A DNA stretch of 64,000 bases from Candidatus Latescibacterota bacterium (GTDB lineage Bacteria; Krumholzibacteriota; Krumholzibacteriia; WVZY01), in NCBI GenBank assembly GCA_963791045.1, contig CAWBQK010000009.1, positions 32,001 through 96,000 of the forward strand, written 5' to 3'. Both the position numbers and the translations under genes were made by a program. Positions 781 to 13,481 of the stretch are shown here, piece after piece (positions within the stretch are counted from its first letter, which is position 1; every line of letters begins with the position of its first letter). The notes below the pieces were generated by a model. It made no database searches and had not been told where the DNA came from. It was given only the letters and a program-made list of their open reading frames with translations.

Positions 781-2327
781 TTTATATAACCGAGACTCTT
801 GAGCTTCTTGAGAAGTTCGGGATCATTAACTTTTTCTTCGAACCCCGGCATCATCCACCCAATCGGAGGCGGCGGCCCGATCGCGTCTTTTCCTTCGTTA
901 TTCATGACCATCTCATCGAGTCGTGAGAGGAGCGCTTCGAGAGCTTGTTTACTGCCCTCATCTTGCGCGATATCTTTCGTCTCACGAGGATCCCGGTCGA
1001 TACGATACAACTCGTAATCATCGTCCGACCCCCAAATCAATTTCATCTTGCCGTCCTGAACCGCGCGCAGGCGCCGCATAAACGGAACCAGCTTTGCCGC
1101 CCGCCGGTTTCTCTCGGCGACATCGAGTTTTAAAAGATCAGGTTTGAACACCGACAACACCTGGCGCGGATAGTAATACTCGGCAAACACGGTGGCGTCC
1201 ACCGACTCCGCCCCTTCGGCAAAGAGATCACGGCCGACCCGCCGGCCCCGTTGCTTGATTCCACACTGCTTGAGAATTGTTGGGAAAAGATCGAGAAGTT
1301 CCGAGCGGTCGCGCCTCACCTCGCCGGCGCGGGAACCGCCGGGGAAACGAACAATCAGAGGGATCTCGAGCAGCGTGTTGTGGACGCTGAAAACATGCCC
1401 CACGAAACCGTGATCGCCGAGGTTCTCCCCATGATCGGAGATGATAACAACCAACGTCTCCTCGATGCGACCGTCCCGTTTGATGATTTCAAACAGTTCG
1501 CCGATCCTCGCGTCGAGGTGGGCCATTTCTCCATCGTACAGACGATTTGCCAGCGCGAGACGCTCCTGGTCAAACGGTTCGATCAGATAATGACCGGAGA
1601 GATCCATGTCCATGACTTCGAGAACCTCGCCCTGTGAGAATTCGTCGCCAACGAACCTGGAACGATATGGCTCGGGCGGCTCGTAGGGCGCATGTGCTTC
1701 GATATAGTTGAGGAAGGCAAAGTACGGCCGTTCGCGATCGCTGGACATGAGGAACCGGCGGAACGCCATGTTGTTTTGCTCGGCAAAACTCTTGTCCTTG
1801 TCGCGTTTGACCTTCAACCGGAACACTTCGTCAAACACGTCGAACCCTCTGACAAGACCGCTCGGACGGTTTACAACGGGATTCGCCGATACGGCGTACG
1901 TTTGATAACCCGCACTTCCAAGAAGCTCGGCGAGCGTGGGGACTTCGGTTGAAAGCTCAAGTGTTTCCTGCGTCGCGCGGTGCCCCACGGGGTAGAGCCC
2001 CGTGAACAGCGACGCGTGGGCGGCGAGCGTCCACCCGGAGTTCGAATAGAAATGTTCGAACCGGACGCCTTGCTTCGCGATGGCATCGATATTCGGCGTC
2101 GTGGGACGGTCGTACCCGTAGCACGACAGCCGATCGGCCCGCACGGTGTCGAGAACGATGAGTACCACGTTGTGTTTGGGCGCAGCGGTGCCGGACTCAC
2201 CCGAACAGCCCAGCAGACCCAACGTCGCGATGATGAGCAGGAAAAGCACAATCGCCGTTTGCGATTGTCTGCGTTTGAACGCGTTTTTGATTATGTTTGA
2301 CGGCATGAGTGTTTTCGCCTGAGTCAC
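777..2327 (-). CDS. Sulfatase-like hydrolase/transferase (alkaline phosphatase superfamily), probable lipoprotein
   Basis: VLIVLDTVRAD, WTLAAHASLFTG, SDHGE, lipobox LLGC, C-terminal LKSLGY. Start may be 2306. Confidence 0.88.
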   Translation of the reverse strand: MTQAKTLMPSNIIKNAFKRRQSQTAIVLFLLIIATLGLLGCSGESGTAAPKHNVVLIVLDTVRADRLSCYGYDRPTTPNIDAIAKQGVRFEHFYSNSGWTLAAHASLFTGLYPVGHRATQETLELSTEVPTLAELLGSAGYQTYAVSANPVVNRPSGLVRGFDVFDEVFRLKVKRDKDKSFAEQNNMAFRRFLMSSDRERPYFAFLNYIEAHAPYEPPEPYRSRFVGDEFSQGEVLEVMDMDLSGHYLIEPFDQERLALANRLYDGEMAHLDARIGELFEIIKRDGRIEETLVVIISDHGENLGDHGFVGHVFSVHNTLLEIPLIVRFPGGSRAGEVRRDRSELLDLFPTILKQCGIKQRGRRVGRDLFAEGAESVDATVFAEYYYPRQVLSVFKPDLLKLDVAERNRRAAKLVPFMRRLRAVQDGKMKLIWGSDDDYELYRIDRDPRETKDIAQDEGSKQALEALLSRLDEMVMNNEGKDAIGPPPPIGWMMPGFEEKVNDPELLKKLKSLGYIK

Positions 2328-2332
2328 ATCGC

Positions 2333-2420
2333 AGGCGTGGGTGGCATCGATGGGGCCCCCAAAACGCGCGAAGCGTTAGCGAGCGAGTGTGGGATAATCG
2401 ATGACAGGACCCGCGCCGGG
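2333..2420. repeat. Dispersed GC-rich intergenic repeat, copy 1
   Basis: AGGCGTGGGTGGCATCGATGGGGCCCCC and CGAAGCG...GACAGGACCCGCGCCGGG recur at 28651-28678 and 28782-28833. Confidence 0.7.
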
Positions 2421-2531
2421 ATGCGCCTCCATTGCAACTTGTTTTCGAAATCCATCGTAGACAAGAATAACCGAATATCCTCTATCGAAAAAGTCCATAT
2501 ATGTCCGGCCGATCCAATCGAGGAGGTTGAT

Positions 2532-3176
2532 ATGACCAGAAACATGATGCGAAATCGTGTGGTGATCCTTGCCGCGTTCACTCTCGTGGTGTCCGCGTTG
2601 GTTTCTTCGTCCGAGGACTGGGAAAAGAGATGGAATGAGCGTCAGCCTCCCGACAAGGTGATGGACGCAGTCGGTATCGAGCCCGGTATGACCGTGGCGG
2701 AGTTCGGCGCGGGCCGCGGACGTTACGCCGTGCAGGTCGCCGCCCGTCTCGGCGCCAGGGGCAAAATGTATGCTGAGGACATCGACGCGGGCGCGCTCGA
2801 ATACCTCGCGTCACGCTGCGAACGTGACAATATCCAGAACGTGGAGACGATCCTTGGTACGGTCACGGACCCAAAGTTCCCCAAAGGGTCGTGTGACTTT
2901 GCCTACTGTATCAACACGTATCACCACATCGAACAACCGGTTCAGCTCCTCCGAAACATGATCCCGGGCCTCAAACCCGATGGACGACTGGTCATCATCG
3001 AGCATTCACCGGAGAAAGCGCTCAAAGAGGGGTTTGAAGGGCACTGCACGCCGACCGATTCGGTGGTCGCGCACGCGACTGCGGCCGGGTACAAACTCGT
3101 GGAGACACACTCGTTTCTCGAACTCGATGAAATCTATGTGTTCGCGGTAGCGGCCAAAGAAAAAGCGGCCGATTGA
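2532..3176 (+). CDS. Class I SAM-dependent methyltransferase with N-terminal signal peptide
   Basis: VAEFGAGRG motif I, YAEDI, NTYHH, LKPDGRLVIIE; GAGGAGG RBS before ATG 2532. Confidence 0.85.
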   Translation: MTRNMMRNRVVILAAFTLVVSALVSSSEDWEKRWNERQPPDKVMDAVGIEPGMTVAEFGAGRGRYAVQVAARLGARGKMYAEDIDAGALEYLASRCERDNIQNVETILGTVTDPKFPKGSCDFAYCINTYHHIEQPVQLLRNMIPGLKPDGRLVIIEHSPEKALKEGFEGHCTPTDSVVAHATAAGYKLVETHSFLELDEIYVFAVAAKEKAAD

Positions 3177-3202
3177 GCGCTTTGCATTGCTCGACCGGCC
3201 GC
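3165..3202. terminator. Hairpin between convergent methyltransferase and msrA genes
   Basis: GCGGCCGATTGAGC...GCTCGACCGGCCGC inverted repeat; no strong U-tract. Confidence 0.4.
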
Positions 3203-3221
3203 GAGTCCGAAATGTCGTGGA

Positions 3222-3869
3222 TTACTTCGCCTGGTCGCCAAAAAGATCTCTGAATTTGACCAGCTTGGGAGCGACAACCGCCTGGCAGTACCCCTGCTCC
3301 GGGTTGCGTTTGAAGTAGTTCTGGTGATACTCCTCCGCCTCGAAAAAAACTTTCAGAGGAACAACTTCGGTAACTATCGGCTGATTCACGAGCTTTTTGG
3401 ATTCGATCTCGGCGATCTTTTTTTCGGCGGCTTCCTTCTGGCTCTCATTGTGGTAGAAAACCACCGACCGGTACTGGCTACCCACATCGGCTCCTTGCCG
3501 GTTGAGCGTGGTCGCATCGTGAATCGAGAAAAACACATTGAGAATTTCGTCAAAACTCACCACGCTCGCGTCGAACTCGATCTGGACGACCTCGGCATGC
3601 CCGGTACCGCCTGAACAAACCTCTTTGTAGGTGGGATTCTTTACCGCGCCGCCGGCGTACCCCGACACGACGGTCTTAACGCCTTTGAGCTCTTCGTATA
3701 CCGCTTCGAGACACCAAAAGCATCCACCGCCGAGTGTCGTCATCTGTGTGTCGCCGTTCTTACCCGCCGCTTTTGCCGAATCGCTCATCAGCTGTCCTTT
3801 CGGGATTCCGGGGCCGTTCAAAACGAAGAAGCCCAGGACGAGAATTGTCATCGATATTGATTTCCACAT
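3222..3869 (-). CDS. msrA: Peptide methionine sulfoxide reductase MsrA with signal-like N-terminus
   Basis: GGCFWC, GYAGG, TGHAEVV, RQGADVGSQYRS, AEEYHQNY; start placed at MWKSISM after GGGAG. Confidence 0.93.
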   Translation of the reverse strand: MWKSISMTILVLGFFVLNGPGIPKGQLMSDSAKAAGKNGDTQMTTLGGGCFWCLEAVYEELKGVKTVVSGYAGGAVKNPTYKEVCSGGTGHAEVVQIEFDASVVSFDEILNVFFSIHDATTLNRQGADVGSQYRSVVFYHNESQKEAAEKKIAEIESKKLVNQPIVTEVVPLKVFFEAEEYHQNYFKRNPEQGYCQAVVAPKLVKFRDLFGDQAK

Positions 3870-4099
3870 TATTGACTCCCTATGATAGACCCGTGCAGAG
3901 TTGATTGGAATATACAAAAGAGACACGGCCGCGGCAAATCCTTCATGTATTAGCGCGTATGTGAACGCCTTCACGTGGATGGTCCAGTAAAATTCCTGAC
4001 CCGCGCTGGGTAAGTGAGCGCAACCGTGACAATTGATGGGCGCCGTGGTAATATTTAACTTCAGAACAAGATCGAAACATTTGTCGAAACCACAATTAC

Positions 4100-5563
4100 A
4101 TGATGTCCTGGATTTCCGCATATAGACGCGTACTAACAGCCGGGGCGGCGCTGTCGTTGATCTGCGCCGTGGGTCTTTCGGTTTTGTCGGCCGGTTGCGG
4201 GCGCGGTGGGACGCCGCCCACGCGCAAACACGTTCTCGTGCTCACGATCGACACACTCCGTCACGATTATCTCTCCTCGGCGGGATATGATCTCCCGACG
4301 ACACCCTTCATTGACTCGCTTCTGTCCGGCGGAGTCGTTTTTGACAATGCCATCACACCCATCCCGCGGACGACACAGGCGCTGGCGAGTATGCTTACAG
4401 GCGCTTATCCGCACACCCACGGTGTGCGAACACTCTTCGATTCACTTTCCGACAACGTAACGACCGTGACGGAACTTGCACGTGGCGCGGGATATAAAAC
4501 GATCGCCGTGGTATCCAACCACATCCTCACGCGCGAACGCGGTCTCGACCGCGGATTCGATGTCTACGATTTTGGGACCGACGCGCGCGACGCCCAGGCG
4601 ACCACCCAGGCGGCGATCACACAGCTGCAAACCGTGAATCGGGACGATAAGCTCTTTGTCTGGGTTCATTACATCGACCCGCACGTGCCGTATTATCCGC
4701 CCCAGGAAATCGTCCACGACTTCGCTCCCAACTACGAGGGACGGTACAAGTGGCATTTCGGAGCAAAAAAAGGCGGGATTGGAAACCATGCCTATCCCAA
4801 AGATCTTCCGAAATCGAAGGCGGTGTTCCAGAATCCGCTTCCCGATTACGTCAACGCGCATATCCGTCGGCTTTACGCCGCCGACATCCGGTTTTCGGAC
4901 GACGCGGTGGCCGGTTTGATAACGTGGCTGCGGCGTGAGCTTGGCGAAGACTGGGTAATTGTGTTTGCGTCCGATCACGGGGAAAGCCTGGGCGAGCACG
5001 ATTATTTCTACGATCACGGCGACTATGTGTACAATGCGACGCTTAGGGTCCCCCTGGGCATCGTCCTCCCCGAAACCGACCCGCTCTTCCGTAAAGGACA
5101 CGTTGAGAGCTGGGTATCGCTTGCCGACATCACGCCGACACTCGCGGAGCTGATGAACCTGGAGTTCAACGGGGCGAATAAACAACTGGAGAGCCGGTCG
5201 CTGGTTCCCTGTCTCAGGGGCGAGTCGCTTCCCTCACAACCGGTGTTTTCGGAATGCGGCAAGGCGTTCTTCCCGGACCTCGTTCACCGCCGGACGGAGT
5301 TCACCGTGGCGGGACGTTTTCGAACGGTCATCGATGGCGACTGGAAACTCATCTGGACGCCGGGACAAGAGGACAGCCTGTCGTTCGAACTCTACAATCT
5401 CACGACGGACCCCGGCGAAACCCACAATATTCATGACCCGGCGCACCCGGAGGCCCGGCGTCTGACCGGGCTGCTCACACAGTGGCTCAAAAACACACCG
5501 CAACGCGACAGCACACCGAGCGACGCGGACATCGAGCGCCTCAAATCCCTCGGTTACATCTAA
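4100..5563 (+). CDS. Sulfatase-like hydrolase/transferase, probable lipoprotein
   Basis: LTIDTLRHD, PRTTQALASMLTG, DPH, SDHGE, lipobox SAGC, LKSLGYI. Confidence 0.88.
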   Translation: MMSWISAYRRVLTAGAALSLICAVGLSVLSAGCGRGGTPPTRKHVLVLTIDTLRHDYLSSAGYDLPTTPFIDSLLSGGVVFDNAITPIPRTTQALASMLTGAYPHTHGVRTLFDSLSDNVTTVTELARGAGYKTIAVVSNHILTRERGLDRGFDVYDFGTDARDAQATTQAAITQLQTVNRDDKLFVWVHYIDPHVPYYPPQEIVHDFAPNYEGRYKWHFGAKKGGIGNHAYPKDLPKSKAVFQNPLPDYVNAHIRRLYAADIRFSDDAVAGLITWLRRELGEDWVIVFASDHGESLGEHDYFYDHGDYVYNATLRVPLGIVLPETDPLFRKGHVESWVSLADITPTLAELMNLEFNGANKQLESRSLVPCLRGESLPSQPVFSECGKAFFPDLVHRRTEFTVAGRFRTVIDGDWKLIWTPGQEDSLSFELYNLTTDPGETHNIHDPAHPEARRLTGLLTQWLKNTPQRDSTPSDADIERLKSLGYI

Positions 5564-5579
5564 TCCGACAGCGGGGTAG

Positions 5580-6998
5580 TTACCACTCGGGGTTTTCCGC
5601 GGTAAGATATTCGTGGATCGATCGTGCCGCTTTGCGTCCGGCGCCCATCGCCATAATAACGGTTGCGGCTCCTGTCATCACGTCGCCACCCGTCCACACA
5701 CGCGGTTTCGAGGTCTTGCCCGTCTCGTCGTCGGCGGCGATATTGCCTTTTCTTCCGATGTCGAGTCCCGGGGTCGTCTGGGCGATCAAGGGGTTCGGGC
5801 TGTTTCCGATCGCGCACACAATCGCGTCGACGGGGACCAGCGTCTCCGAGCCTTCGACGGGCACGGGCCGGCGGCGCCCCGACTCGTCGGGTTCTCCCAG
5901 CTCCATCCTTTTGCACTCCATCTCCTTGACCCAACCGTTTTCGTCACCGATATAACGAAGCGGCAGTGTCAGAAGATCGAATATGACGCCTTCTTCCTCC
6001 GCATTTTCGACTTCTTCGAGTCGCGCGGGAAGTTCGTCCCTCGACCGCCGGTACACTATGTGGGTTTCGGCGCCCAGTCGCAGCGCGGTCCTGGCGCAGT
6101 CCATGGCCACGTTGCCCCCACCGACGACGAACACTTTCTTGTGGTTCTTGATCGGTGTACCGCTACCCGGGAGATAACCCTTCATCAGGTTCATTCGCGT
6201 CAGGTATTCGTTGGCCGAGTACACGCCGTTGAGGTTTTCTCCGGGGATATCCATAAACCACGGAAGCCCGGCGCCCGAACCGACAAAACAGGCGTCGTAT
6301 TCTTCGAGCAGGCTGTCAATCGTTCTCGTCCTGCCGATGATATAGTCCGTCACCATCTCCACGCCGAGTTTCTCGAGATAGTCCACTTCGCGTTTGACGA
6401 TCTTCTTGGGCAATCTGAATTCCGGAATTCCGTAGATCAATACGCCGCCCATTTCGTGGAGCGCTTCAAAAATCGTGACACCGTGACCCTGTTTGATGAG
6501 ATCGCCCGCAACGGTCAACCCCGCGGGGCCTCCACCGATTACCGCAATCTTCTTGCCCGTCGCCGGCGGAATCTCCGGCAGCTTGAGATTTTCCTGTTCG
6601 GCTTCCCAGTCGGCGAGGAACCGTTCGACACGGCCGATGGCAAGCTCGCCGCCCTTTTTTTGCAGTGCGCACACGCCCTCGCACTGGTCTTCCTGTGGGC
6701 ACACCCTTCCACACACGGCTGGAAGCAGGTTTTTGTCTTTGAGTATGCGGACACCTTCGGCGAAATCCCCTTCGGCCACCGCGGCCATCATCCCCGCGAT
6801 ATCGATCTCCACCGGACAGCTGCTAACACACCTCGGCTTCTTGCATACGAGACACCGGGCGGCTTCTTCCATCGCCAATTCCGCTGTGTATCCAAGCGCG
6901 ACTTCATCGAAATTGTGCGCGCGCACATCTTCGGCCTGTTTGGGCATCTCTCTTCTATTGAGATCGATCTTCTTTTTTTCTTTCTTGGGTTCGGCCAC
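5580..6998 (-). CDS. nfnB: NfnB/SudA: GltD-like large subunit of electron-bifurcating transhydrogenase
   Basis: CLVCKKPRCVSSCP, CGRVCPQEDQCE, GGGPAG (FAD), VGGGNVAMD and YRRS (NADPH); adjacent to an nfnA-like gene. Confidence 0.9.
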   Translation of the reverse strand: MAEPKKEKKKIDLNRREMPKQAEDVRAHNFDEVALGYTAELAMEEAARCLVCKKPRCVSSCPVEIDIAGMMAAVAEGDFAEGVRILKDKNLLPAVCGRVCPQEDQCEGVCALQKKGGELAIGRVERFLADWEAEQENLKLPEIPPATGKKIAVIGGGPAGLTVAGDLIKQGHGVTIFEALHEMGGVLIYGIPEFRLPKKIVKREVDYLEKLGVEMVTDYIIGRTRTIDSLLEEYDACFVGSGAGLPWFMDIPGENLNGVYSANEYLTRMNLMKGYLPGSGTPIKNHKKVFVVGGGNVAMDCARTALRLGAETHIVYRRSRDELPARLEEVENAEEEGVIFDLLTLPLRYIGDENGWVKEMECKRMELGEPDESGRRRPVPVEGSETLVPVDAIVCAIGNSPNPLIAQTTPGLDIGRKGNIAADDETGKTSKPRVWTGGDVMTGAATVIMAMGAGRKAARSIHEYLTAENPEW

Positions 6999-7061
6999 TG
7001 TATTAATCCTCTTGCTTGACGAATTGCCTATTACAAAATCTTGATATTTGATTTCCGCCTG

Positions 7062-7907
7062 CTATTGCGACAGGCAGGTCCGCTTCTTACACCCGCTCGT
7101 CTTGATGGATTTGGTTTCTTCGGCGACGTATGACTTCCGCCTCTGAAACAGCTCATCCCAATCCACCTCGTGTCCGTCAAAATCGGGACCATCCACGCAG
7201 GCAAACTTGGTTTCCGATCCAACCGTCACGCGGCAAACGCCGCACATTCCCGTGCCGTCGATCATGATTGGGTTCAAGGCGACAATCGTCTTGATCCCCA
7301 GGGGACGGCTCGCGTCGCAGCCTTTTTTAAGGAGGAGCGTACAGCCGTTTATAATGATCCGGTTGACGGGCACACCAAGCGACTCAATGATTTCGGGAAG
7401 CTGGTCAACGTGCCCCTTGATTCCTTTTGTGCCGTCGCGAGTGATGTAAATAATCTCGTCGGCCACGTCGCGCAGTTTCTCTTCCCAATACATGAGATAG
7501 GAGCTTCTGCTCTCCATCACCACGACGACCTTGTTGTTTTTCTCTTTCAACCCGCGGGCAATCGGATACACACTCCCGATTCCGTAACACCCACACAAAA
7601 GGAGAACCGTCCCAAACTCCTCAATCTCTGACGGCGTCCCCAACGGCCCCGCAAGAGTCGGAATACTATCGCCCTCTCTTAGCTCCGAGAGCTTTCCGGT
7701 TGTGTGTCCCACGTTCTGAACGACGGTGGTTACCGTTCCTTTTTCCGCATCCCAGTCGGAAAGCGACAACGGTATCCTTTCACCCTCCTCGTCCGCACGG
7801 ACAATAATGAACTGTCCGGGCTGAGCGGACTTTGCGACCGCGGGCGCTTCAAATGTCATGCGAAAAGCATTCGGGATGATCATCTCGGACTTGACCAGCT
7901 TAAACAT
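7062..7907 (-). CDS. nfnA: NfnA/SudB: PyrK-like FAD/[2Fe-2S] small subunit
   Basis: PGQF...ERIPLS, GPLG, PIMIDGTGMCGVCRV, FACVDGPDF. Confidence 0.88.
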   Translation of the reverse strand: MFKLVKSEMIIPNAFRMTFEAPAVAKSAQPGQFIIVRADEEGERIPLSLSDWDAEKGTVTTVVQNVGHTTGKLSELREGDSIPTLAGPLGTPSEIEEFGTVLLLCGCYGIGSVYPIARGLKEKNNKVVVVMESRSSYLMYWEEKLRDVADEIIYITRDGTKGIKGHVDQLPEIIESLGVPVNRIIINGCTLLLKKGCDASRPLGIKTIVALNPIMIDGTGMCGVCRVTVGSETKFACVDGPDFDGHEVDWDELFQRRKSYVAEETKSIKTSGCKKRTCLSQ

Positions 7908-10428
7908 CTTTTTTCCTTAAGTTTACACGCAGCGTACGCAACCCATCGGTGTCGGGTCCATCCAGTATAGTGCTCAACAAACCCGGCGGCTGTTCATCGA
8001 TCAGGCGAGCGCGCCATATTTTTTCAAAACCGTCCGAATTGACGATAACTTCGTCGCCCTCGGAAACCCCCGCGTTCAATGCGTCGTCGCGGTTCATCTC
8101 GACCACGCCTTCAATAAACAACTCCCCTGTTCCCGGTACGAATTCCCGCAGGGAAAGTCCCCTGTAGGTATGCTCGGAGACTGCGACACGAAGAACAAAC
8201 GGACAGTCGCCGGCATTCTCTTCCGGCTGAGATCCGGCGTCCGCCGCATCGTCCGATCCGGAACGATCCCCCTCCGGCAACGCGGCAAGTTCCATTCGCG
8301 CGGCATCAATATCTTTGTAACCGGCGACGATCTCTGACATTTCTTTTTGAATCTCGCCGACATTCTTGAAATCAAAACCGCTCTTCCCCATTTTTCTCGC
8401 GATCCGGCACAGGACATCCCAATCGGGCAGCGCATCCCCGGGAGGATCGACGATCTTACGCACCCTCTGTATCCGTCCCTCACCGTTGACAAAGGTGCCG
8501 TCCGCTTCGGAGAACGCCGCCGAAGGCAGTGAAAGGTCCGGATTGACGTCCGGCAGGGCCGGATAAATATTTTGATAGATCAAGAAATCGGTTTGAGGCC
8601 GCTCCGCGGGAGAACCATCGCCCACAAGAAAAGTCACCTTCGTTTTTTGCTTGATCGAGAATACGTAAGGCTCCGGCGACGATCCCGATCCGGCAAGATC
8701 GACACCCCACAATTTCGAGAGCTTTTTTATCTGGGCCGCATCGGATGAGGAATACCCACCGGGGAGAATTCCGGAACTGGCACCCATAAGGAGCGAGCCG
8801 AAAAGATTGTTGTGCGGAGGAAGAACGACGACCTTCGCGCCTATCGCCTCGCCGAGCAGTTTTATCGACCGGAGAATGTCCCGGGTCGACTCGCGCTGCA
8901 GAACTTCGGTTCCAACAAGAATGACGGGGTTATCCGCACCCCGCAGCATCGTCGCCGCGTTGAGAACGACTTCATCGACAGCGTCGCCCTCCCGATCAGC
9001 CGGGGGCTTCTCGCCGTTGCCATTGACCGAACCAAGAAGTTTTTCGAAGAACTTTCTCTCGGTGCCGGGTTGCGGCTTGATCCAAAGATCGCTCGATATC
9101 GCCAGTTCATTCGCGCGGGGATTGAGCGTAATAACTCTCGCTCCCCTGGCAACGGCTTTTCGAAGTTCGACGTTTACGACCGACTGAGCGAACTGGACGT
9201 CCAGACCAGCGCAGAATGCTACCTGCGCGTTCTTGATATCGGCGAGAGTTCCCGGCATTCTCAAAAGATCGACATAAGCGTCGAGGTCCGGCCCAAAGAA
9301 ACGCCTCGCATCGGTATCGATGTTGCCGGAACCCATCACGACACGCGTGAATTTTTGAGCGACATATAGATCTTCGCTCGAACAGTTCGCTGACACTACC
9401 ATCCCGAATTCTTCTGGACCACATTCGACAAGTCTCTCGGTCGCCAACGCTACCGCGTCATCCCACGAGCACTCCAACGACACACCATTTTCAAACGCGT
9501 ACGGCTTGGTCACGCGCGTTTCGTCGTTCACCAGCTCCGGAAGACAAAACCGGCCTTTCACGCAAAGTTGAGCATCGCTTACGACCGGGTCTTCGACCGG
9601 CAGACTACCGATGAGTTCATCCCCTTTGGCCAGCAGCTTGACCTGGCAGCCTATACCGCACAGAGGACAAGTCGAAACTTCTTCTTTGTCCGCGACGCCA
9701 TCCCATTTCTTGACTCTTTCCGACAGCGCGCCGGTCGGGCAAACGGCGATACACTCTCCGCAGAACTCGCAGCCCGCGTCGATCTGATCGCAGTCGTATG
9801 CCGTCCCCACCATCGTGTCCGAACCGCGTCTAAGAAACGCCAGAGCGGCCGAACCACGGAGCTCCCCACACACGCGCACGCAGCGCCCACAAAGAATACA
9901 AAGATTGTAGTCGCGGTCGATAAACGGGTCGCCTTTGGTCACTGGAATACCGCGGTATTTGATCGGATACACAAGCTCCTTCACACCGAGATATTCGGCC
10001 ACGTCCTGCAGTTCGCACTGGCCATCCGTGGGGCAGTAACGGCAACCCGTGGTAACACCCGCCTTGCGAACAGTTGTTTGCTTCGCCCGGCAATCATCCT
10101 TCTCGCCGCAAATCAAGCAACTCGACGGATGTTCGCTCAATATTAACTGGAGAATATCGACGCGCGCAGATTGAACGGCTTTCGAATTGGTTTTTACTTC
10201 CATTCCCTCTGTGACCGGCGTCGTACACGCCGCGGGGTATCCGCGCATCCCATCGACCTCGACGACACACATCCTGCATGCGCCAAACGGCGTCAGCTCC
10301 TTGTGGGTGCACAGCGTCGGTATGTATATGCCGTTTTGCTCGGCGGCTTGCAGAATGGTCGATCCCTTCTCGGCCTCGACCAGCTTGCCGTCCATTTTGA
10401 TTTTCATCTTCTGTGCTGTTTTACTCAT
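7900..10428 (-). CDS. NuoG/FdhF-like Fe-S subunit (BfuA-type) with degenerate molybdopterin domain
   Basis: N-terminal [2Fe-2S] (GACRMC), His-ligated cluster, CILCGRC/CEFCGEC, TCPLCGIGC..LCVKG, GTFVNGEGRIQ. The FdhF Cys/Sec-His site reads NIDTDARRFFG. Confidence 0.85.
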   Translation of the reverse strand: MSKTAQKMKIKMDGKLVEAEKGSTILQAAEQNGIYIPTLCTHKELTPFGACRMCVVEVDGMRGYPAACTTPVTEGMEVKTNSKAVQSARVDILQLILSEHPSSCLICGEKDDCRAKQTTVRKAGVTTGCRYCPTDGQCELQDVAEYLGVKELVYPIKYRGIPVTKGDPFIDRDYNLCILCGRCVRVCGELRGSAALAFLRRGSDTMVGTAYDCDQIDAGCEFCGECIAVCPTGALSERVKKWDGVADKEEVSTCPLCGIGCQVKLLAKGDELIGSLPVEDPVVSDAQLCVKGRFCLPELVNDETRVTKPYAFENGVSLECSWDDAVALATERLVECGPEEFGMVVSANCSSEDLYVAQKFTRVVMGSGNIDTDARRFFGPDLDAYVDLLRMPGTLADIKNAQVAFCAGLDVQFAQSVVNVELRKAVARGARVITLNPRANELAISSDLWIKPQPGTERKFFEKLLGSVNGNGEKPPADREGDAVDEVVLNAATMLRGADNPVILVGTEVLQRESTRDILRSIKLLGEAIGAKVVVLPPHNNLFGSLLMGASSGILPGGYSSSDAAQIKKLSKLWGVDLAGSGSSPEPYVFSIKQKTKVTFLVGDGSPAERPQTDFLIYQNIYPALPDVNPDLSLPSAAFSEADGTFVNGEGRIQRVRKIVDPPGDALPDWDVLCRIARKMGKSGFDFKNVGEIQKEMSEIVAGYKDIDAARMELAALPEGDRSGSDDAADAGSQPEENAGDCPFVLRVAVSEHTYRGLSLREFVPGTGELFIEGVVEMNRDDALNAGVSEGDEVIVNSDGFEKIWRARLIDEQPPGLLSTILDGPDTDGLRTLRVNLRKKDV

Positions 10429-12316
10429 TGGTTCCACCTGCTTCGTTCCCTACAAGAAGTCCGTCGCCGGCGACGGCTCCGAATTCACATATCTCATAAC
10501 ACGCCCGGCATTTCACACACTTGGTCGGATCCAGGACATGCGGCACCCTCTTTTCGCCGGTAATCGCCCCGGTCGGGCACGCCCTCATGCAGCGAAGACA
10601 ACCCGTACACAATTCCGGGATAATCCGGAACTCGACGAGATCACTGCAAATCACCGCGTCACATCTCTTGTCGTTTATGTGAGCAAGGTATTCCGAACGG
10701 AAATAGCGAATCGTGGTCAGCGCCGGATTCGGCGCCGTTTGCCCGAGACCGCACAACGATGTGTTGCGGATAGTCTCCCCGAGGGATTCGAGCGTGTCGA
10801 GATCCTCTTCAACGCCTTCCCCTCGTGTGATCCTCTCGAGAATATCGACCATGTGTCGCGTGCCGATTCGGCACGGGTTGCACTTGCCGCACGACTCGGC
10901 CTGGGTAAAATTCAAAAAGTACTTGGCCACATCCACGACGCAGGTATCCTCATCCATTACGATCAGACCACCCGAACCCATTATCGATCCTGCTTGCGCC
11001 AGTGATTCATATTCCACCGGCGTGTCGAGAAACTCCTTGGGAAGACAACCGCCCGAAGGACCGCCCGTCTGAACCGCTTTGAATTCCTTGATCGAACCGC
11101 CGCCGATGTCGAAAATGATTTCCCTGAGCGTGGTCCCCATCGGCACCTCGATGAGACCCGTGCGGGCAACCTTGCCGACAAGTGAAAACGTCTTTGTGCC
11201 GCAGCTCTTTTTGGTTCCGTACTGGCTGTACCAATCGGCCCCGTTTCTCAGAATGCTCGGCAGCGAAGCGAGAGTTTCGACGTTGTTGATAACTGTCGGC
11301 TTTTTCCAGAGACCGGAAACCGCGGGGTAAGGCGGCCGCGATCTGGGCATTCCGCGCTCGCCTTCGATCGACGCGATGAGCGCCGTTTCCTCTCCGCAAA
11401 CAAACGCGCCAGCGCCTTCTTTGATAGAAATATCAAAATCAAACCCGGAGCCGAGGATGTTCTTTCCGAGAAGCCCGAACTTTCGAATCTGCCCCACCGC
11501 TTTTTTCAAACGGGCCACGGCGAGCGGGTACTCCGCCCTTATATAGATGTAACCATGCGCCGCTCCAATTGCGTACGCGGCAATCAACAAACCCTCTAGA
11601 AGCGCGTGCGGGTCCCCCTCAATGAGAGAACGGTTCATGAACGCGCCCGGATCGCCTTCATCGGCATTGCATATCATGTATTTGGTATCGCCCGGAGCAT
11701 TCCGGCAAAACTCCCATTTCTTTGCCGTCGTAAACCCGGCGCCGCCGCGGCCCCGGAGCCCCGCCGCCGACACCTCGGCGATCACCTGCTCCGGCCCATC
11801 CGCGAGCGCAGCCTTCAATCCAAGGTATCCGTCATTCGCAAGATAGTGGCCTACATTTTCCGGATCGATGATACCGCAGTTTTTGAGGACTATTCTCACC
11901 TGGGGTTTAAGCATCGGCAGGTCGAAAAACCGCGGCAAATCCCCGACGGATTCTTCGCCCTCTTTGCCGAAGTGGCCAACGGCAAAGCGCTGGAGCGGAG
12001 CGCCGTCCATGACATGCGATTTGATAATCCGCCGCGCATTCTTTGCGGTCACGTTCGAATAGCTGACCCGAGGCTCTCCGGGCATCGCGATGTCCATTAG
12101 CGGTTCGAGATAGCACGGTCCAATGCAGCCGACTTCCACGATTTTCGCTTCGAGCTTGAACTCCTCGAGCGACTCCTTGATCGTCTCCATCACCTGGAGC
12201 GCACCGGCGGCGCGTCCGCACGATGCCATCCCCAGATAGATGACGGGCACCTCGCTGGTCATCAGCGTCGCCCAATCTTCGTCTGCCTTTCTAATCGTGT
12301 TCAGAAAATCATTCAT
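10421..12316 (-). CDS. nuoF: NuoF/HydB-like FMN-NADH subunit (BfuB-type) with N-terminal thioredoxin-like Fe-S domain and C-terminal 2x[4Fe-4S]
   Basis: GRGGAGF, NADEGDPGAFM, GAFVCGEETAL, GGPSGG, ESCGKCNPCR, HINDKRCDAVIC, CTGCLRC/CVKCRAC. Confidence 0.92.
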   Translation of the reverse strand: MNDFLNTIRKADEDWATLMTSEVPVIYLGMASCGRAAGALQVMETIKESLEEFKLEAKIVEVGCIGPCYLEPLMDIAMPGEPRVSYSNVTAKNARRIIKSHVMDGAPLQRFAVGHFGKEGEESVGDLPRFFDLPMLKPQVRIVLKNCGIIDPENVGHYLANDGYLGLKAALADGPEQVIAEVSAAGLRGRGGAGFTTAKKWEFCRNAPGDTKYMICNADEGDPGAFMNRSLIEGDPHALLEGLLIAAYAIGAAHGYIYIRAEYPLAVARLKKAVGQIRKFGLLGKNILGSGFDFDISIKEGAGAFVCGEETALIASIEGERGMPRSRPPYPAVSGLWKKPTVINNVETLASLPSILRNGADWYSQYGTKKSCGTKTFSLVGKVARTGLIEVPMGTTLREIIFDIGGGSIKEFKAVQTGGPSGGCLPKEFLDTPVEYESLAQAGSIMGSGGLIVMDEDTCVVDVAKYFLNFTQAESCGKCNPCRIGTRHMVDILERITRGEGVEEDLDTLESLGETIRNTSLCGLGQTAPNPALTTIRYFRSEYLAHINDKRCDAVICSDLVEFRIIPELCTGCLRCMRACPTGAITGEKRVPHVLDPTKCVKCRACYEICEFGAVAGDGLLVGNEAGGTNE

Positions 12317-12761
12317 ATTTTTCCAAAATTTCGTTGAGGTCGTTGACAGTGACACGGCTGTGAATCTCGTCCCCTATTTTTACAACGGGCGCGAGCGCGC
12401 AGCACCCAAGACATGCGGCGCGTTCGAAATCATAACGTCCGTCTTCCGTGGTTTGGCCCGGCGATACTCCAAGCTCTCGTTGGATACCTTCACTGAGAAC
12501 ATGCCCCCCGGCAACATGGCAGGCAGTGCCCAGGCAAACCTTAACCGAGTGCCTCCCTGGCTCTGTGAATCGGAACTGGGAGTAAAACGACGCGACGCCA
12601 AAAATCTTGCTTTCGGAAATCTTCAAAAAACGCGAAATACGTTTGACGGTCTCTTTCGAGATAAAACCGTCTTTCTCTTGAAAGTCCTGAAGGATCGCAA
12701 TCAGTTCACCCTGCTTTCCTTCAAATTCGGAAAATGTGCTCGTCGAATCTTTATCAATCAT
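12309..12761 (-). CDS. nuoE: NuoE/HydC-like [2Fe-2S] subunit (BfuC-type)
   Basis: VASFYSQF, VCLGTACHVAG, ACLGCCALAP. Confidence 0.92.
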   Translation of the reverse strand: MIDKDSTSTFSEFEGKQGELIAILQDFQEKDGFISKETVKRISRFLKISESKIFGVASFYSQFRFTEPGRHSVKVCLGTACHVAGGHVLSEGIQRELGVSPGQTTEDGRYDFERAACLGCCALAPVVKIGDEIHSRVTVNDLNEILEKYE

Positions 12762-12822: not shown

Positions 12823-13416
12823 TCAGCTCGAGGCGGTGTTGTCCTTGTCTCTGGGTTTTCTTTTGTGCAGATGATAATAACAAGTCCGCTTTACGACATC
12901 TCGCAGCAGACATTTCTCGCGGAAGTAAATCCCGCACCGGAAACACAGCTCCGGCGGCGCGGTTTCCAACTCGACGATATCGGCGGACAACCGATCGAGA
13001 AGATCCGCGGTCTGGATGAAATCCTCCGGCATAAACTGTCGAAACAGGCCGTCGAGTACCTTGTCCTGGACCTTTTCGTATCTTTCGAGCAATGAATGTG
13101 CTTCCGGCGTAAGAGACAACTCGTTCACGCGGCGGTCGGTCTTCGATTCCACGCGCAGGAGATATCCACGGCGAACGAGTCTGTCGACCGCCTTGCTCGC
13201 GGCGGCGTTGGTCACCCGGCAAAAAGCAGCCACTTCGGTTATGCTTTCAACATTGGTCGAAGCCACAAGCTTGAGAAGCCTGAGCTGGGAGATGGTGACC
13301 TCCCCACCAAGTTCCTCTCGAAGATGCTCCATCATCAACTCGTCCACCGCGGAACTGAAGATATGCATGCTCGCGAGGAAGTCGTTGATAATCCTGGTTC
13401 GCTCTTTCACAGCCAC
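12823..13416 (-). CDS. MarR-family regulator with C-terminal Cys-rich tail
   Basis: TISQLRLL..NAAASKAVDRL..DRR winged HTH; CFRCGIYFREKCLLRDVVKRTC; AAGGAG RBS before GTG 13416. Confidence 0.88.
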   Translation of the reverse strand: MAVKERTRIINDFLASMHIFSSAVDELMMEHLREELGGEVTISQLRLLKLVASTNVESITEVAAFCRVTNAAASKAVDRLVRRGYLLRVESKTDRRVNELSLTPEAHSLLERYEKVQDKVLDGLFRQFMPEDFIQTADLLDRLSADIVELETAPPELCFRCGIYFREKCLLRDVVKRTCYYHLHKRKPRDKDNTASS

Positions 13417-13481
13417 GTTTTGAGCTCCTTGGTTTGGAATCGCGGGCACGGACTTTCGAGGCCTGCCGCCCTCGAATTCAA

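Follow-up and report, generated by a model that had tools for sequence, protein, structure and literature searches.

Five adjacent genes in a 64,000-nt stretch of a Candidatus Latescibacterota genome (assembly GCA_963791045.1, contig CAWBQK010000009.1; the whole stretch is called the window below) probably encode one soluble hybrid of the BfuABC and NfnSL systems, in which a variant NfnA without a site for nicotinamide adenine dinucleotide (NAD(H)) serves as an adaptor, and such hybrids appear to be widespread. As far as sequences can tell, the architecture is real, conserved and widespread, a Bfu-NfnSL hybrid that lacks defining features of both the Stn enzymes and canonical NfnSL. The open reading frames (ORFs) of the five genes lie on the minus strand within positions 5580..12761. 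Here BfuA* denotes the NuoG-like subunit with an extra motif, NfnS* the variant NfnA and NfnL the NfnB protein, and related stretches carry L numbers (L001 etc.).

12309..12761, minus strand: BfuC (NuoE-like), 150 amino acids (aa), matching PF01257 (E 2e-44) and NCBIfam models of the NuoE/HoxE type.
10421..12355, minus strand: BfuB (NuoF-like), 644 aa from the earliest GTG, likely start M14 at 12316; assigned by Pfam, NCBIfam and PDB alignment.
7900..10437, minus strand: BfuA* (NuoG-like), 845 aa, likely start M4 at 10428; assigned by Pfam, PDB alignment to FdsA and a Cys/His map over 121 members.
7062..7907, minus strand: NfnS* (variant NfnA), 281 aa, matching NCBIfam PRK06222 (346 bits) and, over its full length, 5jca_S (276 bits).
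5580..6998, minus strand: NfnL (NfnB), 472 aa, with Fer4_20 and Pyr_redox_2 of the gltA/NfnB type and full-length PDB alignments.

Pfam and NCBIfam placed all five products in the expected families. The first four genes are joined by the sequences ATGAATGA, ATGAGTAA and ATGTTTAA, which form three 8-nt ATGNNTRA start/stop overlaps given the starts M14 (12316) for NuoF and M4 (10428) for NuoG, and nfnB follows nfnA after 63 nt. An earlier reading made without database searches (the sequence-only reading) had described the overlaps of the nuoE-, nuoF- and nuoG-like genes and nfnA and the 63-bp gap to nfnB. The ORFs and junction sequences agree with it, and every string that it quoted is present in the translations.

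NfnS* belongs to PRK06222, the 'sulfide/dihydroorotate dehydrogenase-like' family. It retains the flavin adenine dinucleotide (FAD) motifs ERIPLS (at 43) and GHTTG (at 67) as well as the Asp plus three Cys of the [2Fe-2S] site (MIDGTGMCGVC at 215), of which C222, C225 and C237 are found in all 81 NfnA homologues. Canonical NfnA differs from it at the following sites.

7572..7604, minus strand: loop LLLCGCYGIGS, residues 102-112, with C107 for the third Gly of GGGxG and two more clade-specific residues, Y108 and G111.
7512..7514, minus strand: codon of Glu132, where canonical NfnA has Gly.
7326..7352, minus strand: loop INGCTLLLK, residues 186-194, with C189 for the Pro of the GP motif.

In the PDB alignment, LCGCYGIGS and NGCT of NfnS* stand opposite IGGGVGVA / VGGGVGIA and the GP of solved NfnS chains. 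We compared the signature columns of 22 variant sequences, the window included, with those of 59 canonical ones, and added 121 proteins in which NfnA is fused to a NuoG-like part. Position 107 is Cys in 22/22 split and 121/121 fused members against Gly in 59/59 canonical sequences, and position 189 is Cys in the same 22/22 and 121/121 against Pro in 59/59. Gly replaces Ala at position 111 (22/22 variant, 59/59 canonical), and Glu occupies position 132 in 21/22 split and 121/121 fused members, where 58/59 canonical sequences have Gly. The fused members are invariant at C107, E132, G188-C189 and W250 (121/121); their position 108 is always aromatic (Tyr in 117, Phe in 4), and Thr and Pro are equally frequent at position 190 (58 each). 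Relatives have G or A at position 105, so the window's C105 is not conserved. The sequence-only reading, which had called the NAD-binding loops Cys-substituted, was thus right about C107 and C189, both invariant in the clade, but not about the first Cys of CGC; the conserved signature is G-C-[YF]-G with G-C-[TP] and Glu132 rather than CGCYG. Since the substitutions recur throughout (22/22 split, 121/121 fused) and are tied to a gene neighbourhood described below, the pattern is more than chance.

An AlphaFold2 model of NfnS* (pLDDT 88.1, pTM 0.87) puts C107 right after strand 100-106 and ahead of helix 109-122, E132 where strand 126-133 ends, and G188-C189 right after strand 183-187 and ahead of helix 190-203. 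Nucleotide-binding domains of the NfnS type usually have the strand order 3-2-1-4-5. With that order, C107, E132 and C189 would come together at the ends of neighbouring strands, where the NAD crevice used to be, beside the FAD, a placement that follows from topology rather than from distances. A precedent for the loss of NAD binding exists in NfnII of Pyrococcus furiosus, whose small subunit has Tyr at the position aligned to C107 in the PDB alignment. Its NAD(H) site is reported to be occluded, the NAD-dependent reaction is not catalysed, and only ferredoxin:NADP oxidoreductase (FNOR) activity is seen (PMC12221290). From C107, G111 and C189, which stand in place of the Gly, Ala and Pro of the NAD(H) loops of canonical NfnS, and by analogy with NfnII, we infer that NfnS* has lost NAD(H) binding.

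In order to see how the variant is distributed, we scanned species-representative genomes, which gave at least 597 confirmed NfnA relatives among at least 600 matched stretches, and analysed the best 80 loci. The Cys variant was found in 21 of these and the canonical form in 59. A NuoG-like gene lies directly upstream in 20/21 variant versus 0/59 canonical loci (Fisher p = 3.6e-17, a value that takes the loci as independent although they are related by ancestry); 53 of the 59 canonical loci have at least 1.5 kb of upstream sequence. The sequence-only reading had proposed the co-occurrence of the variant with nuoEFG-like genes as a check, and the counts are those it predicted. Bfu-type genes were found near, and not adjacent to, the canonical gene in L023 and L028, where they are divergent, and in L054, where they come after a NuoF~GltD / HydA-like cluster and one more ORF. 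In a maximum-likelihood tree, the 22 variants form one side of a single branch (ultrafast bootstrap 100, SH-aLRT 95, recovered in 100% of 200 bootstrap trees). Members span at least eight phyla (Ignavibacteriota, Planctomycetota, Bacteroidota, Thermodesulfobacteriota, Verrucomicrobiota, Elusimicrobiota, Bacillota and Methanobacteriota), in addition to metagenome-assembled genomes labelled Aminicenantes. NfnB is present in 17/21 variant genome loci.

Fusion of the two proteins provides further evidence. In the Opitutales locus L018, the NuoG-like protein and the variant NfnA form a single open frame of 834 aa. Searching for longer homologues of the window's NfnA returned 2527 proteins at E <= 1e-20, and the 120 best of these (517-1229 aa, mostly ~830 or ~1135) all carry NuoG-type Pfam domains together with PF10418. 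The G-C-[YF]-G loop pattern occurs in 117/120 and the canonical GGGxGxA or GP..MM in 0/120; these 120 proteins and L018 make up the fusion alignment of 121 sequences. Metagenome loci fetched with one fusion protein as query included 43 with an NfnA part, several of them near-duplicates. The NuoG-like and NfnA parts share one stop-free frame in 32/34 loci, the exceptions being one frameshift and one stop. NuoF lies directly upstream in 24/29, the remainder having an intervening NuoG-like piece or a NuoF fused to a GltD-like domain, and NfnB lies directly downstream in 27/30, with two of the three exceptions carrying it upstream of nuoE. Such frequent fusion of the NuoG-like protein to the variant NfnA argues strongly for one complex, as the sequence-only reading had supposed in wiring NfnA to the Bfu module. 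The evidence as a whole shows that BfuA* and NfnS* belong together in a conserved unit, BfuC-BfuB-BfuA*-NfnS*(-NfnL), and the association of the subunits is well supported. A structure prediction for BfuA* 1-700 with NfnS* gave an ipSAE of 0.39 (runs 0.44, 0.37 and 0.39) against 0.00 for the best control, which supports the pairing weakly and is not relied on here; partner pLDDT was 79 or higher, and the runs had 66% or more of their contacts in common. When the method was calibrated, 116/157 solved complexes and 2/215 mismatched pairs reached the mark, and at <=0.60 only 18/157 together with both mismatches.

Some loci differ in arrangement. In L106 and L108, the NuoF beside the fusion gene carries a fused GltD-like domain of its own and NfnB lies upstream of nuoE. 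L099-L101 have an extra upstream set of NuoE and NuoF~GltD-like genes and, ahead of the BfuA*~NfnS* gene, one more NuoG-like piece. The Elusimicrobiota single-cell genome locus L010 was considered as a second fusion among the genome loci and rejected, because the genes are parted by a TAA stop and by an inverted repeat in the intergenic stretch, and nfnA* starts from an ATG of its own. The repeat between nuoG* and nfnA* is long and perfect-looking (L010:8779-8920, repeat at ~8810-8880), and the frame is open across it, which mimics a fusion.

BfuA* contributes two features of its own.

10015..10092, minus strand: family-specific insertion in BfuA*, residues 116-141, with a second CxxCx5C (C132, C135, C141), a candidate extra Fe-S site.
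9289..9312, minus strand: degenerate formate dehydrogenase (Fdh) active-site stretch DARRFFGP, aligned to CARVCHSP of 9wxb_B and 6tg9_A.

The Pfam domains Fer2_4, NADH-G_4Fe-4S_3, Fer4_Nqo3, Molybdop_Fe4S4 and Molybdopterin predict a [2Fe-2S] cluster, a His-ligated [4Fe-4S] cluster, two ferredoxin-type [4Fe-4S] clusters and the [4Fe-4S] cluster of the molybdopterin domain. We aligned 121 NuoG-like sequences that are linked or fused to a variant NfnA. All standard cluster ligands are invariant among them, including C43/54/57/71 and H103/C107/C110/C116, the A1 and A2 ligands. Likewise present in 121/121 is C132-x2-C135-x5-C141, a tandem copy of the motif of the His-ligated cluster, in an insertion whose K125 and T130 are near-invariant. 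A single copy of CxxCx5C is found in the five solved relatives with printed alignments (three HydA chains, NiFe-Bfu A and FdsA), and the extra copy is missing in 4/4 NuoG-like proteins unlinked to a variant NfnA (the C15 copy of the window's own genome, L023, L028 and L054). The motif, which the sequence-only reading had overlooked, is a candidate for an additional Fe-S site.

The best overall matches to BfuA* are FdsA, the alpha subunit of NAD-dependent formate dehydrogenase (6tg9_A, 9wxb_B), and NuoG of complex I, with which it shares the N-terminal cluster domains and a molybdopterin-type fold; against the NCBIfam NuoG model it scores 317 bits, below the cut-off. BfuA* differs from FdsA in its duplicated CxxCx5C and in having Phe for both the Mo-ligand Cys and the catalytic His, in a stretch that is deleted in 99/121 family members. 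We rejected a formate dehydrogenase on account of the lost active-site Cys and His, without which BfuA* lacks any catalytic site of its own. Elsewhere in the Methanothrix genome of L021 lies a second NuoG-like gene with the duplicated CxxCx5C, in a 922-aa frame (L089, G002:C2:45687-50039).

BfuB has the domain order of bifurcating B subunits, with an N-terminal thioredoxin-like domain, a flavin mononucleotide (FMN)/NADH domain (Complex1_51K), SLBB, NADH_4Fe-4S with the B1 cluster, and two C-terminal [4Fe-4S] clusters (two Fer4). Pfam matched PF01512, PF10531 and PF10589, with Fer4 families at 577-629. The motifs are ADEGDPGAFM at 231, GGPSGG at 431, HINDKRCDAVIC at 559 and two of CxxCxxCxxxCP type at 583 and 613.

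10646..10681, minus strand: B2 site H-x5-C-x4-C of BfuB (HINDKRCDAVIC, residues 559-570), found likewise in the aligned chains 9bov_B and 9n5u_B.

The B2 site is described as Bfu-specific (PMC9304861), and this site and the GAFM and GGPSG residues are reported to be kept in bifurcating NuoF homologues and missing from non-bifurcating ones (PMC9304861, PMC12018979). The closest solved relatives, over nearly the full length, are 9bov_B of Csac NfnABC (766 bits) and 9n5u_B of an archaeal Nfn-Bfu (760), followed by 8oh5_B of Sporomusa Stn (750), 7t2r_B of NiFe-Bfu (743) and HydB 7q4v_B (709 bits). Non-bifurcating NuoF/Nqo1 and FdsB chains reached at most 418 bits in the same PDB search. The alignment with Bfu chains spans the thioredoxin-like domain, GAFM, GGPSGG, B1, H-x5-C-x4-C and both C-terminal clusters. 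The features of bifurcating HydB that the sequence-only reading had recognised in the NuoF-like protein are therefore confirmed, with the B subunits of Nfn-Bfu enzymes as its closest solved relatives. The thioredoxin-like domain aligns from residues 34-39 to Csac/Tsi NfnB. NCBIfam matches to 2Fe-2S ferredoxins are weak there and the sequence does not tell [2Fe-2S] from Zn; both have been found at B5-type thioredoxin-like sites among solved Bfu members (PMC11829005). BfuC carries the four Cys of a thioredoxin-like [2Fe-2S] motif (CLGTAC at 76, CLGCC at 117). The sequence features that define the Bfu family (PMC9304861) are thus found in the FMN/NADH, SLBB, B1 and C-terminal B3/B4 domains of BfuB, the B2/GAFM/GGPSG residues, the [2Fe-2S] site of BfuC and the A1 and A2 clusters of BfuA*.

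NfnL is similar to the large subunits of Thermotoga maritima (4ylf_B, 560 bits) and P. furiosus NfnI (5jca_L, 501 bits), while its scores against Stn-type chains are 344 to 285. Its cluster ligands are eight Cys and one non-Cys residue, Glu125, and the FAD and NADPH motifs are present; R195 and R326 are the equivalents of P. furiosus R201 and R333 (PMC12221290, PMC10482914), so that E125, R195 and R326, by which the large subunit of NfnSL is recognised, are all in place. Comparing 16 hybrid-linked with 53 canonical NfnB sequences revealed no clade-specific columns at the chosen threshold, in line with the description of NfnB as canonical in the sequence-only reading. By its residues, NfnL is indistinguishable from a bifurcating NfnL.

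We infer the electron path and the substrates, as well as the parts played by C107, C189, E132 and the extra BfuA motif, as follows. BfuC and BfuB would form the core, with the NAD(H)/FMN site and the C-terminal clusters that bind ferredoxin, and NAD(H) would be handled solely at BfuB. BfuA*, its Fdh-like domain catalytically dead, would be an iron-sulfur wire with one additional cluster-type motif. NADP(H) would enter at NfnL, and ferredoxin might be handled there as well as at the C-terminus of BfuB. NfnS*, keeping its FAD and [2Fe-2S] and lacking the NAD(H) pocket, would be attached to BfuA*, often by fusion at the BfuA* C-terminus, and would act as an adaptor by which the electrons that canonical NfnS trades with NAD(H) go to or come from the BfuA chain. 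The invariant Cys, Cys and Glu together with the extra motif of BfuA* would form the connection, perhaps as a further cluster or metal site, or the pocket might have another function. The net chemistry is most likely that of an NADP(H)/NAD(H)/ferredoxin transhydrogenase of the Nfn/Stn kind, and its stoichiometry or direction may differ from that of canonical NfnAB.

It is possible, and we hold it only tentatively, that the former NAD pocket of NfnS has become a new cofactor site (Fe-S, metal or a redox-active dithiol, at C107, C189 and E132) which wires the FAD of NfnS, in an otherwise intact and bifurcating NfnSL, to the flavobicluster of BfuBC. If this is true, the site may act with the extra CxxCx5C of BfuA*, and with Lys125. 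NfnL has all the bifurcating hallmarks and BfuB all the Bfu hallmarks, so two bifurcation-competent centres may coexist, as the potentially double-bifurcating enzyme of the sequence-only reading would require, and the stoichiometry of NADPH, NADH and ferredoxin would then be unlike that of Nfn and Stn. Physiological potentials are given as ~-280 mV for NADH, ~-380 mV for NADPH and ~-500 mV for ferredoxin (PMC9304861). By our own estimate, serial double bifurcation from NADPH to NAD and ferredoxin looks thermodynamically unfavourable. In the confurcating direction, strict coupling would by our arithmetic give NADH + 6 Fd(red) -> 4 NADPH.

Several points weigh against a single hybrid complex with an adaptor NfnS*. 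The loci counted are kin, some metagenome loci are near-duplicates, and the counts are not independent events. In the variant locus L007, a transporter gene takes the place of NuoG upstream; another contig of that genome ends in a NuoG-like gene with the duplicated motif. Three variant loci have no adjacent NfnB (it is missing from L012 and L021 and stands upstream of nuoE in L010), and NADP(H) would consequently not be an obligatory partner. A second, canonical NfnA was found in 5/5 tested hybrid-bearing genomes and beside the hybrid in three Bacteroidota loci, and this coexistence makes a purely redundant Nfn function unlikely; no canonical NfnA was found in the window's own genome, which is 81% complete. 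The coexistence, the missing NfnB of L012 and L021 and the lack of a canonical NfnA in the window's genome all weigh against a simple Nfn-like role. A bifurcating NfnL that fed its high-potential branch into the Bfu core would, by the same estimate as above, yield no sensible bifurcation of NADPH. Finally, the acidic residue gained at the end of strand 2, E132, leaves a dinucleotide-like ligand conceivable. In classical Rossmann folds an acidic residue at this place binds the adenine ribose and favours NAD over NADP.

A distinctly less likely explanation is that NfnS* uses its rebuilt pocket to convert a substrate other than a pyridine nucleotide, with the Cys pair as redox-active dithiol/disulfide or metal ligands beside the FAD, Glu132 as acid/base, and NfnL as an optional NADPH module; that substrate would be the third of a Bfu enzyme. 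The two Cys and the Glu are not just degenerate positions but invariant ones, which argues for a positive function; the L012 and L021 clusters comprise BfuCBA* and NfnS* without an NfnB; genomes with the hybrid also contain canonical NfnAB; and an unknown carrier ('Xfn') has been proposed for P. furiosus NfnII (PMC12221290). However, the flanks vary between loci and conserved neighbours suggest no candidate substrate, NfnB accompanies the variant in the large majority of genome and fused metagenome loci (17/21 and 27/30), and the extra cluster motif that co-occurs in BfuA* fits wiring at least equally well.

We consider it improbable that NfnS* still binds NAD(H) or a related dinucleotide, which would give the complex two NAD(H) sites or a regulatory nucleotide site. 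The spacing G-x-x-x-G-x-G is partly preserved (GCYGIG), and Glu132 sits at the strand-2 end like the ribose-binding acidic residue of Rossmann folds. Against this, Gly107, Ala111 and Pro189, invariant in 59/59 canonical sequences, are all substituted, position 108 is aromatic in every one of the 121 fusions, and the position of C107 is the Tyr of NfnII-S, an enzyme with a reportedly occluded NAD site (PMC12221290). The least plausible explanation, to which we give very little credence, is that two independent enzymes are merely co-transcribed, a BfuABC-type module with an unknown third substrate and NfnS*L as an NADPH:ferredoxin oxidoreductase like NfnII: NfnL is fully canonical, an NfnSL with an occluded NAD site and FNOR activity only has a precedent (PMC12221290), and L007 has the variant nfnAB pair without a NuoG-like neighbour, but BfuA*~NfnS* fusions abound (120/120 best longer homologues, 32/34 metagenome loci in one frame), the variant stands behind a NuoG-like gene in 20/21 loci, the family-specific motif of the associated BfuA* is missing from unlinked NuoG-like proteins, and BfuA* has no catalytic site of its own.

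The known systems closest to the single hybrid complex favoured here are Stn/NfnABC, NfnSL and P. furiosus NfnII. With the Stn/NfnABC enzymes (Nfn-Bfu, Type 1 Bfu) of Sporomusa ovata (8oh5), Caldicellulosiruptor saccharolyticus (Csac, 9bov) and an archaeon (Tsi, 9n5u, by its molecule name), it shares the BfuB/BfuC core and, likely, the substrates NADP(H), NAD(H) and ferredoxin. Both also combine an NADPH/FAD module of the NfnL type with a scaffold of the NuoG/Fdh kind in which the Fdh domain is inactive (PMC10482914, PMC11829005), and the Csac NfnA subunit consists of an N-terminal domain, an NfnL-like domain and an Fdh/NuoG-like domain (PMC11829005). The comparison with a split Stn that retains NfnA, drawn in the sequence-only reading, is apt in view of this domain make-up and of the closeness of BfuB to Nfn-Bfu B subunits. 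Four differences set the hybrid apart. The NfnL-like domain of Stn sits within the BfuA polypeptide, whereas here NfnL is a separate 472-aa protein and BfuA* lacks Pyr_redox and Fer4_20. Stn has a strictly conserved Lys (K170 in StnC) at the FAD-proximal [4Fe-4S] cluster (PMC10482914), whereas NfnL has Glu125 (RVERF in the window against LKRF in 9bov_A and 9n5u_A). Stn has no NfnA homologue in the published account (PMC10482914), whereas NfnS* stands between BfuA* and NfnL. The extra CxxCx5C of BfuA* was not seen in the five solved chains aligned.

NfnSL/NfnAB of T. maritima (4ylf) and P. furiosus NfnI (5jca) share the order of nfnA and nfnB, and both NfnL and NfnS* align with them over the full length, but the hybrid differs in G107C, A111G, G132E and P189C and in lying adjacent or fused to BfuA in a BfuCBA operon. 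A further resemblance is to SfrAB of Geobacter, which consists of a NuoG/Fdh-like and a GltD-like subunit. In P. furiosus NfnII ('Xfn', 5vj7), the small-subunit loop that corresponds to that of C107 is likewise non-canonical (IGAYTGIV), but NfnII keeps the GP motif, has no Cys pair and is a stand-alone heterodimer with no link to Bfu genes in the description available (PMC12221290).

The published accounts keep the two systems apart. A survey of Nfn architectures in 2019 distinguished patterns A to D, with no link to NuoG and 0 occurrences of 'Nuo' in its accessible text (PMC6405883). Xiao et al. 2025 call NfnSL and the Bfu-type NfnABC unrelated (PMC12018979), and papers on bifurcation treat NfnSL and NfnABC/Stn as separate machines for the same reaction, with organisms having either (PMC12018979, PMC10482914). 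Section 5 of Schut et al. 2022 describes no Bfu type with NfnS or NfnL subunits; 17 BfuB clades are left unassigned in that paper, and BfuB of the Nfn type is mentioned in Bacteroidetes (PMC9304861). In the literature searched, whose coverage ends at subscription journals, we found no description of a BfuABC hybrid with NfnS/NfnL or of a NuoG~NfnA fusion.

The operon is preceded in the window by a putative regulator gene.

12823..13449, minus strand: MarR-family regulator gene (Pfam MarR), 61 nt upstream of nuoE.

The encoded protein has a Cys-rich C-terminal tail (C-x2-C ... C ... C within the final ~45 residues), and judging from this it could be a redox-sensing regulator of the operon. Promoter-like matches on the minus strand were found only upstream of the MarR gene in a scan for consensus sequences, and the scan for promoters and terminators gave nothing decisive. 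The gene may be co-transcribed with the operon, and its membership of the unit is uncertain. On the other side, a sulfatase-family gene (4100-5563, plus strand) with a signal-like or lipoprotein-like N-terminus is convergent with nfnB, the stop codons being 16 nt apart.

Other redox genes lie near the hybrid in related loci. In the Bacteroidota loci L011 (993-4032, 12257-13648) and L016 (957-3935, 12218-14518), the hybrid lies between PntAB, the membrane transhydrogenase, and a canonical nfnBA on the opposite strand. In L025 (9872-12172) it is also beside a canonical nfnBA, and with PntAB the region in L011 and L016 forms a 'transhydrogenase island'. An [FeFe]-hydrogenase-like protein of 420-445 aa, with 2x[4Fe-4S], Fe_hyd_lg_C and PF04060, flanks the hybrid in 5/14 related loci examined (L001:2017-4112; L059:2738-4072; L005:12066-13352; L008:11207-13342; L009:10269-12356). 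That of L001 has SHCP where TSCCP, which we take to be the hydrogenase motif, is expected. A histidine-kinase-like ATPase accompanies it in L001, L008 and L009, and L008 and L009 have a DRTGG protein too; the set looks like a sensory hydrogenase module. No counterpart was found in the window's genome. That genome has on contig C11 (L092, G000:C11:332500-343500, ~966-7362) a second NuoE-like gene and a NuoF~GltD-type fusion spread over at least five overlapping ORFs, followed by genes for a small 2Fe-2S protein and a GltB-like protein; frameshifts or assembly errors may account for the splits. We considered this cluster as an Stn-type enzyme and rejected it on account of its composition, a NuoE-like protein, a broken NuoF~GltD fusion, a 2Fe-2S protein and a GltB-like protein.

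A hybrid complex of this kind would be a third architecture, in which an NfnSL-type pair is coupled, and often fused, to BfuABC, with hundreds of relatives in many phyla. It would offer a natural system that unites a site of flavin-only bifurcation and a flavobicluster site in one complex. If the proposed wiring is true, the hybrid could be an evolutionary link between NfnSL and NfnABC/Stn, and it provides a testable route to the origin of Stn. The finding also flags a large set of genes now annotated merely as 'sulfide/dihydroorotate dehydrogenase-like FAD/NAD-binding protein', and hybrid complexes may set the balance of NADPH and ferredoxin in anaerobes of sediments and digesters.

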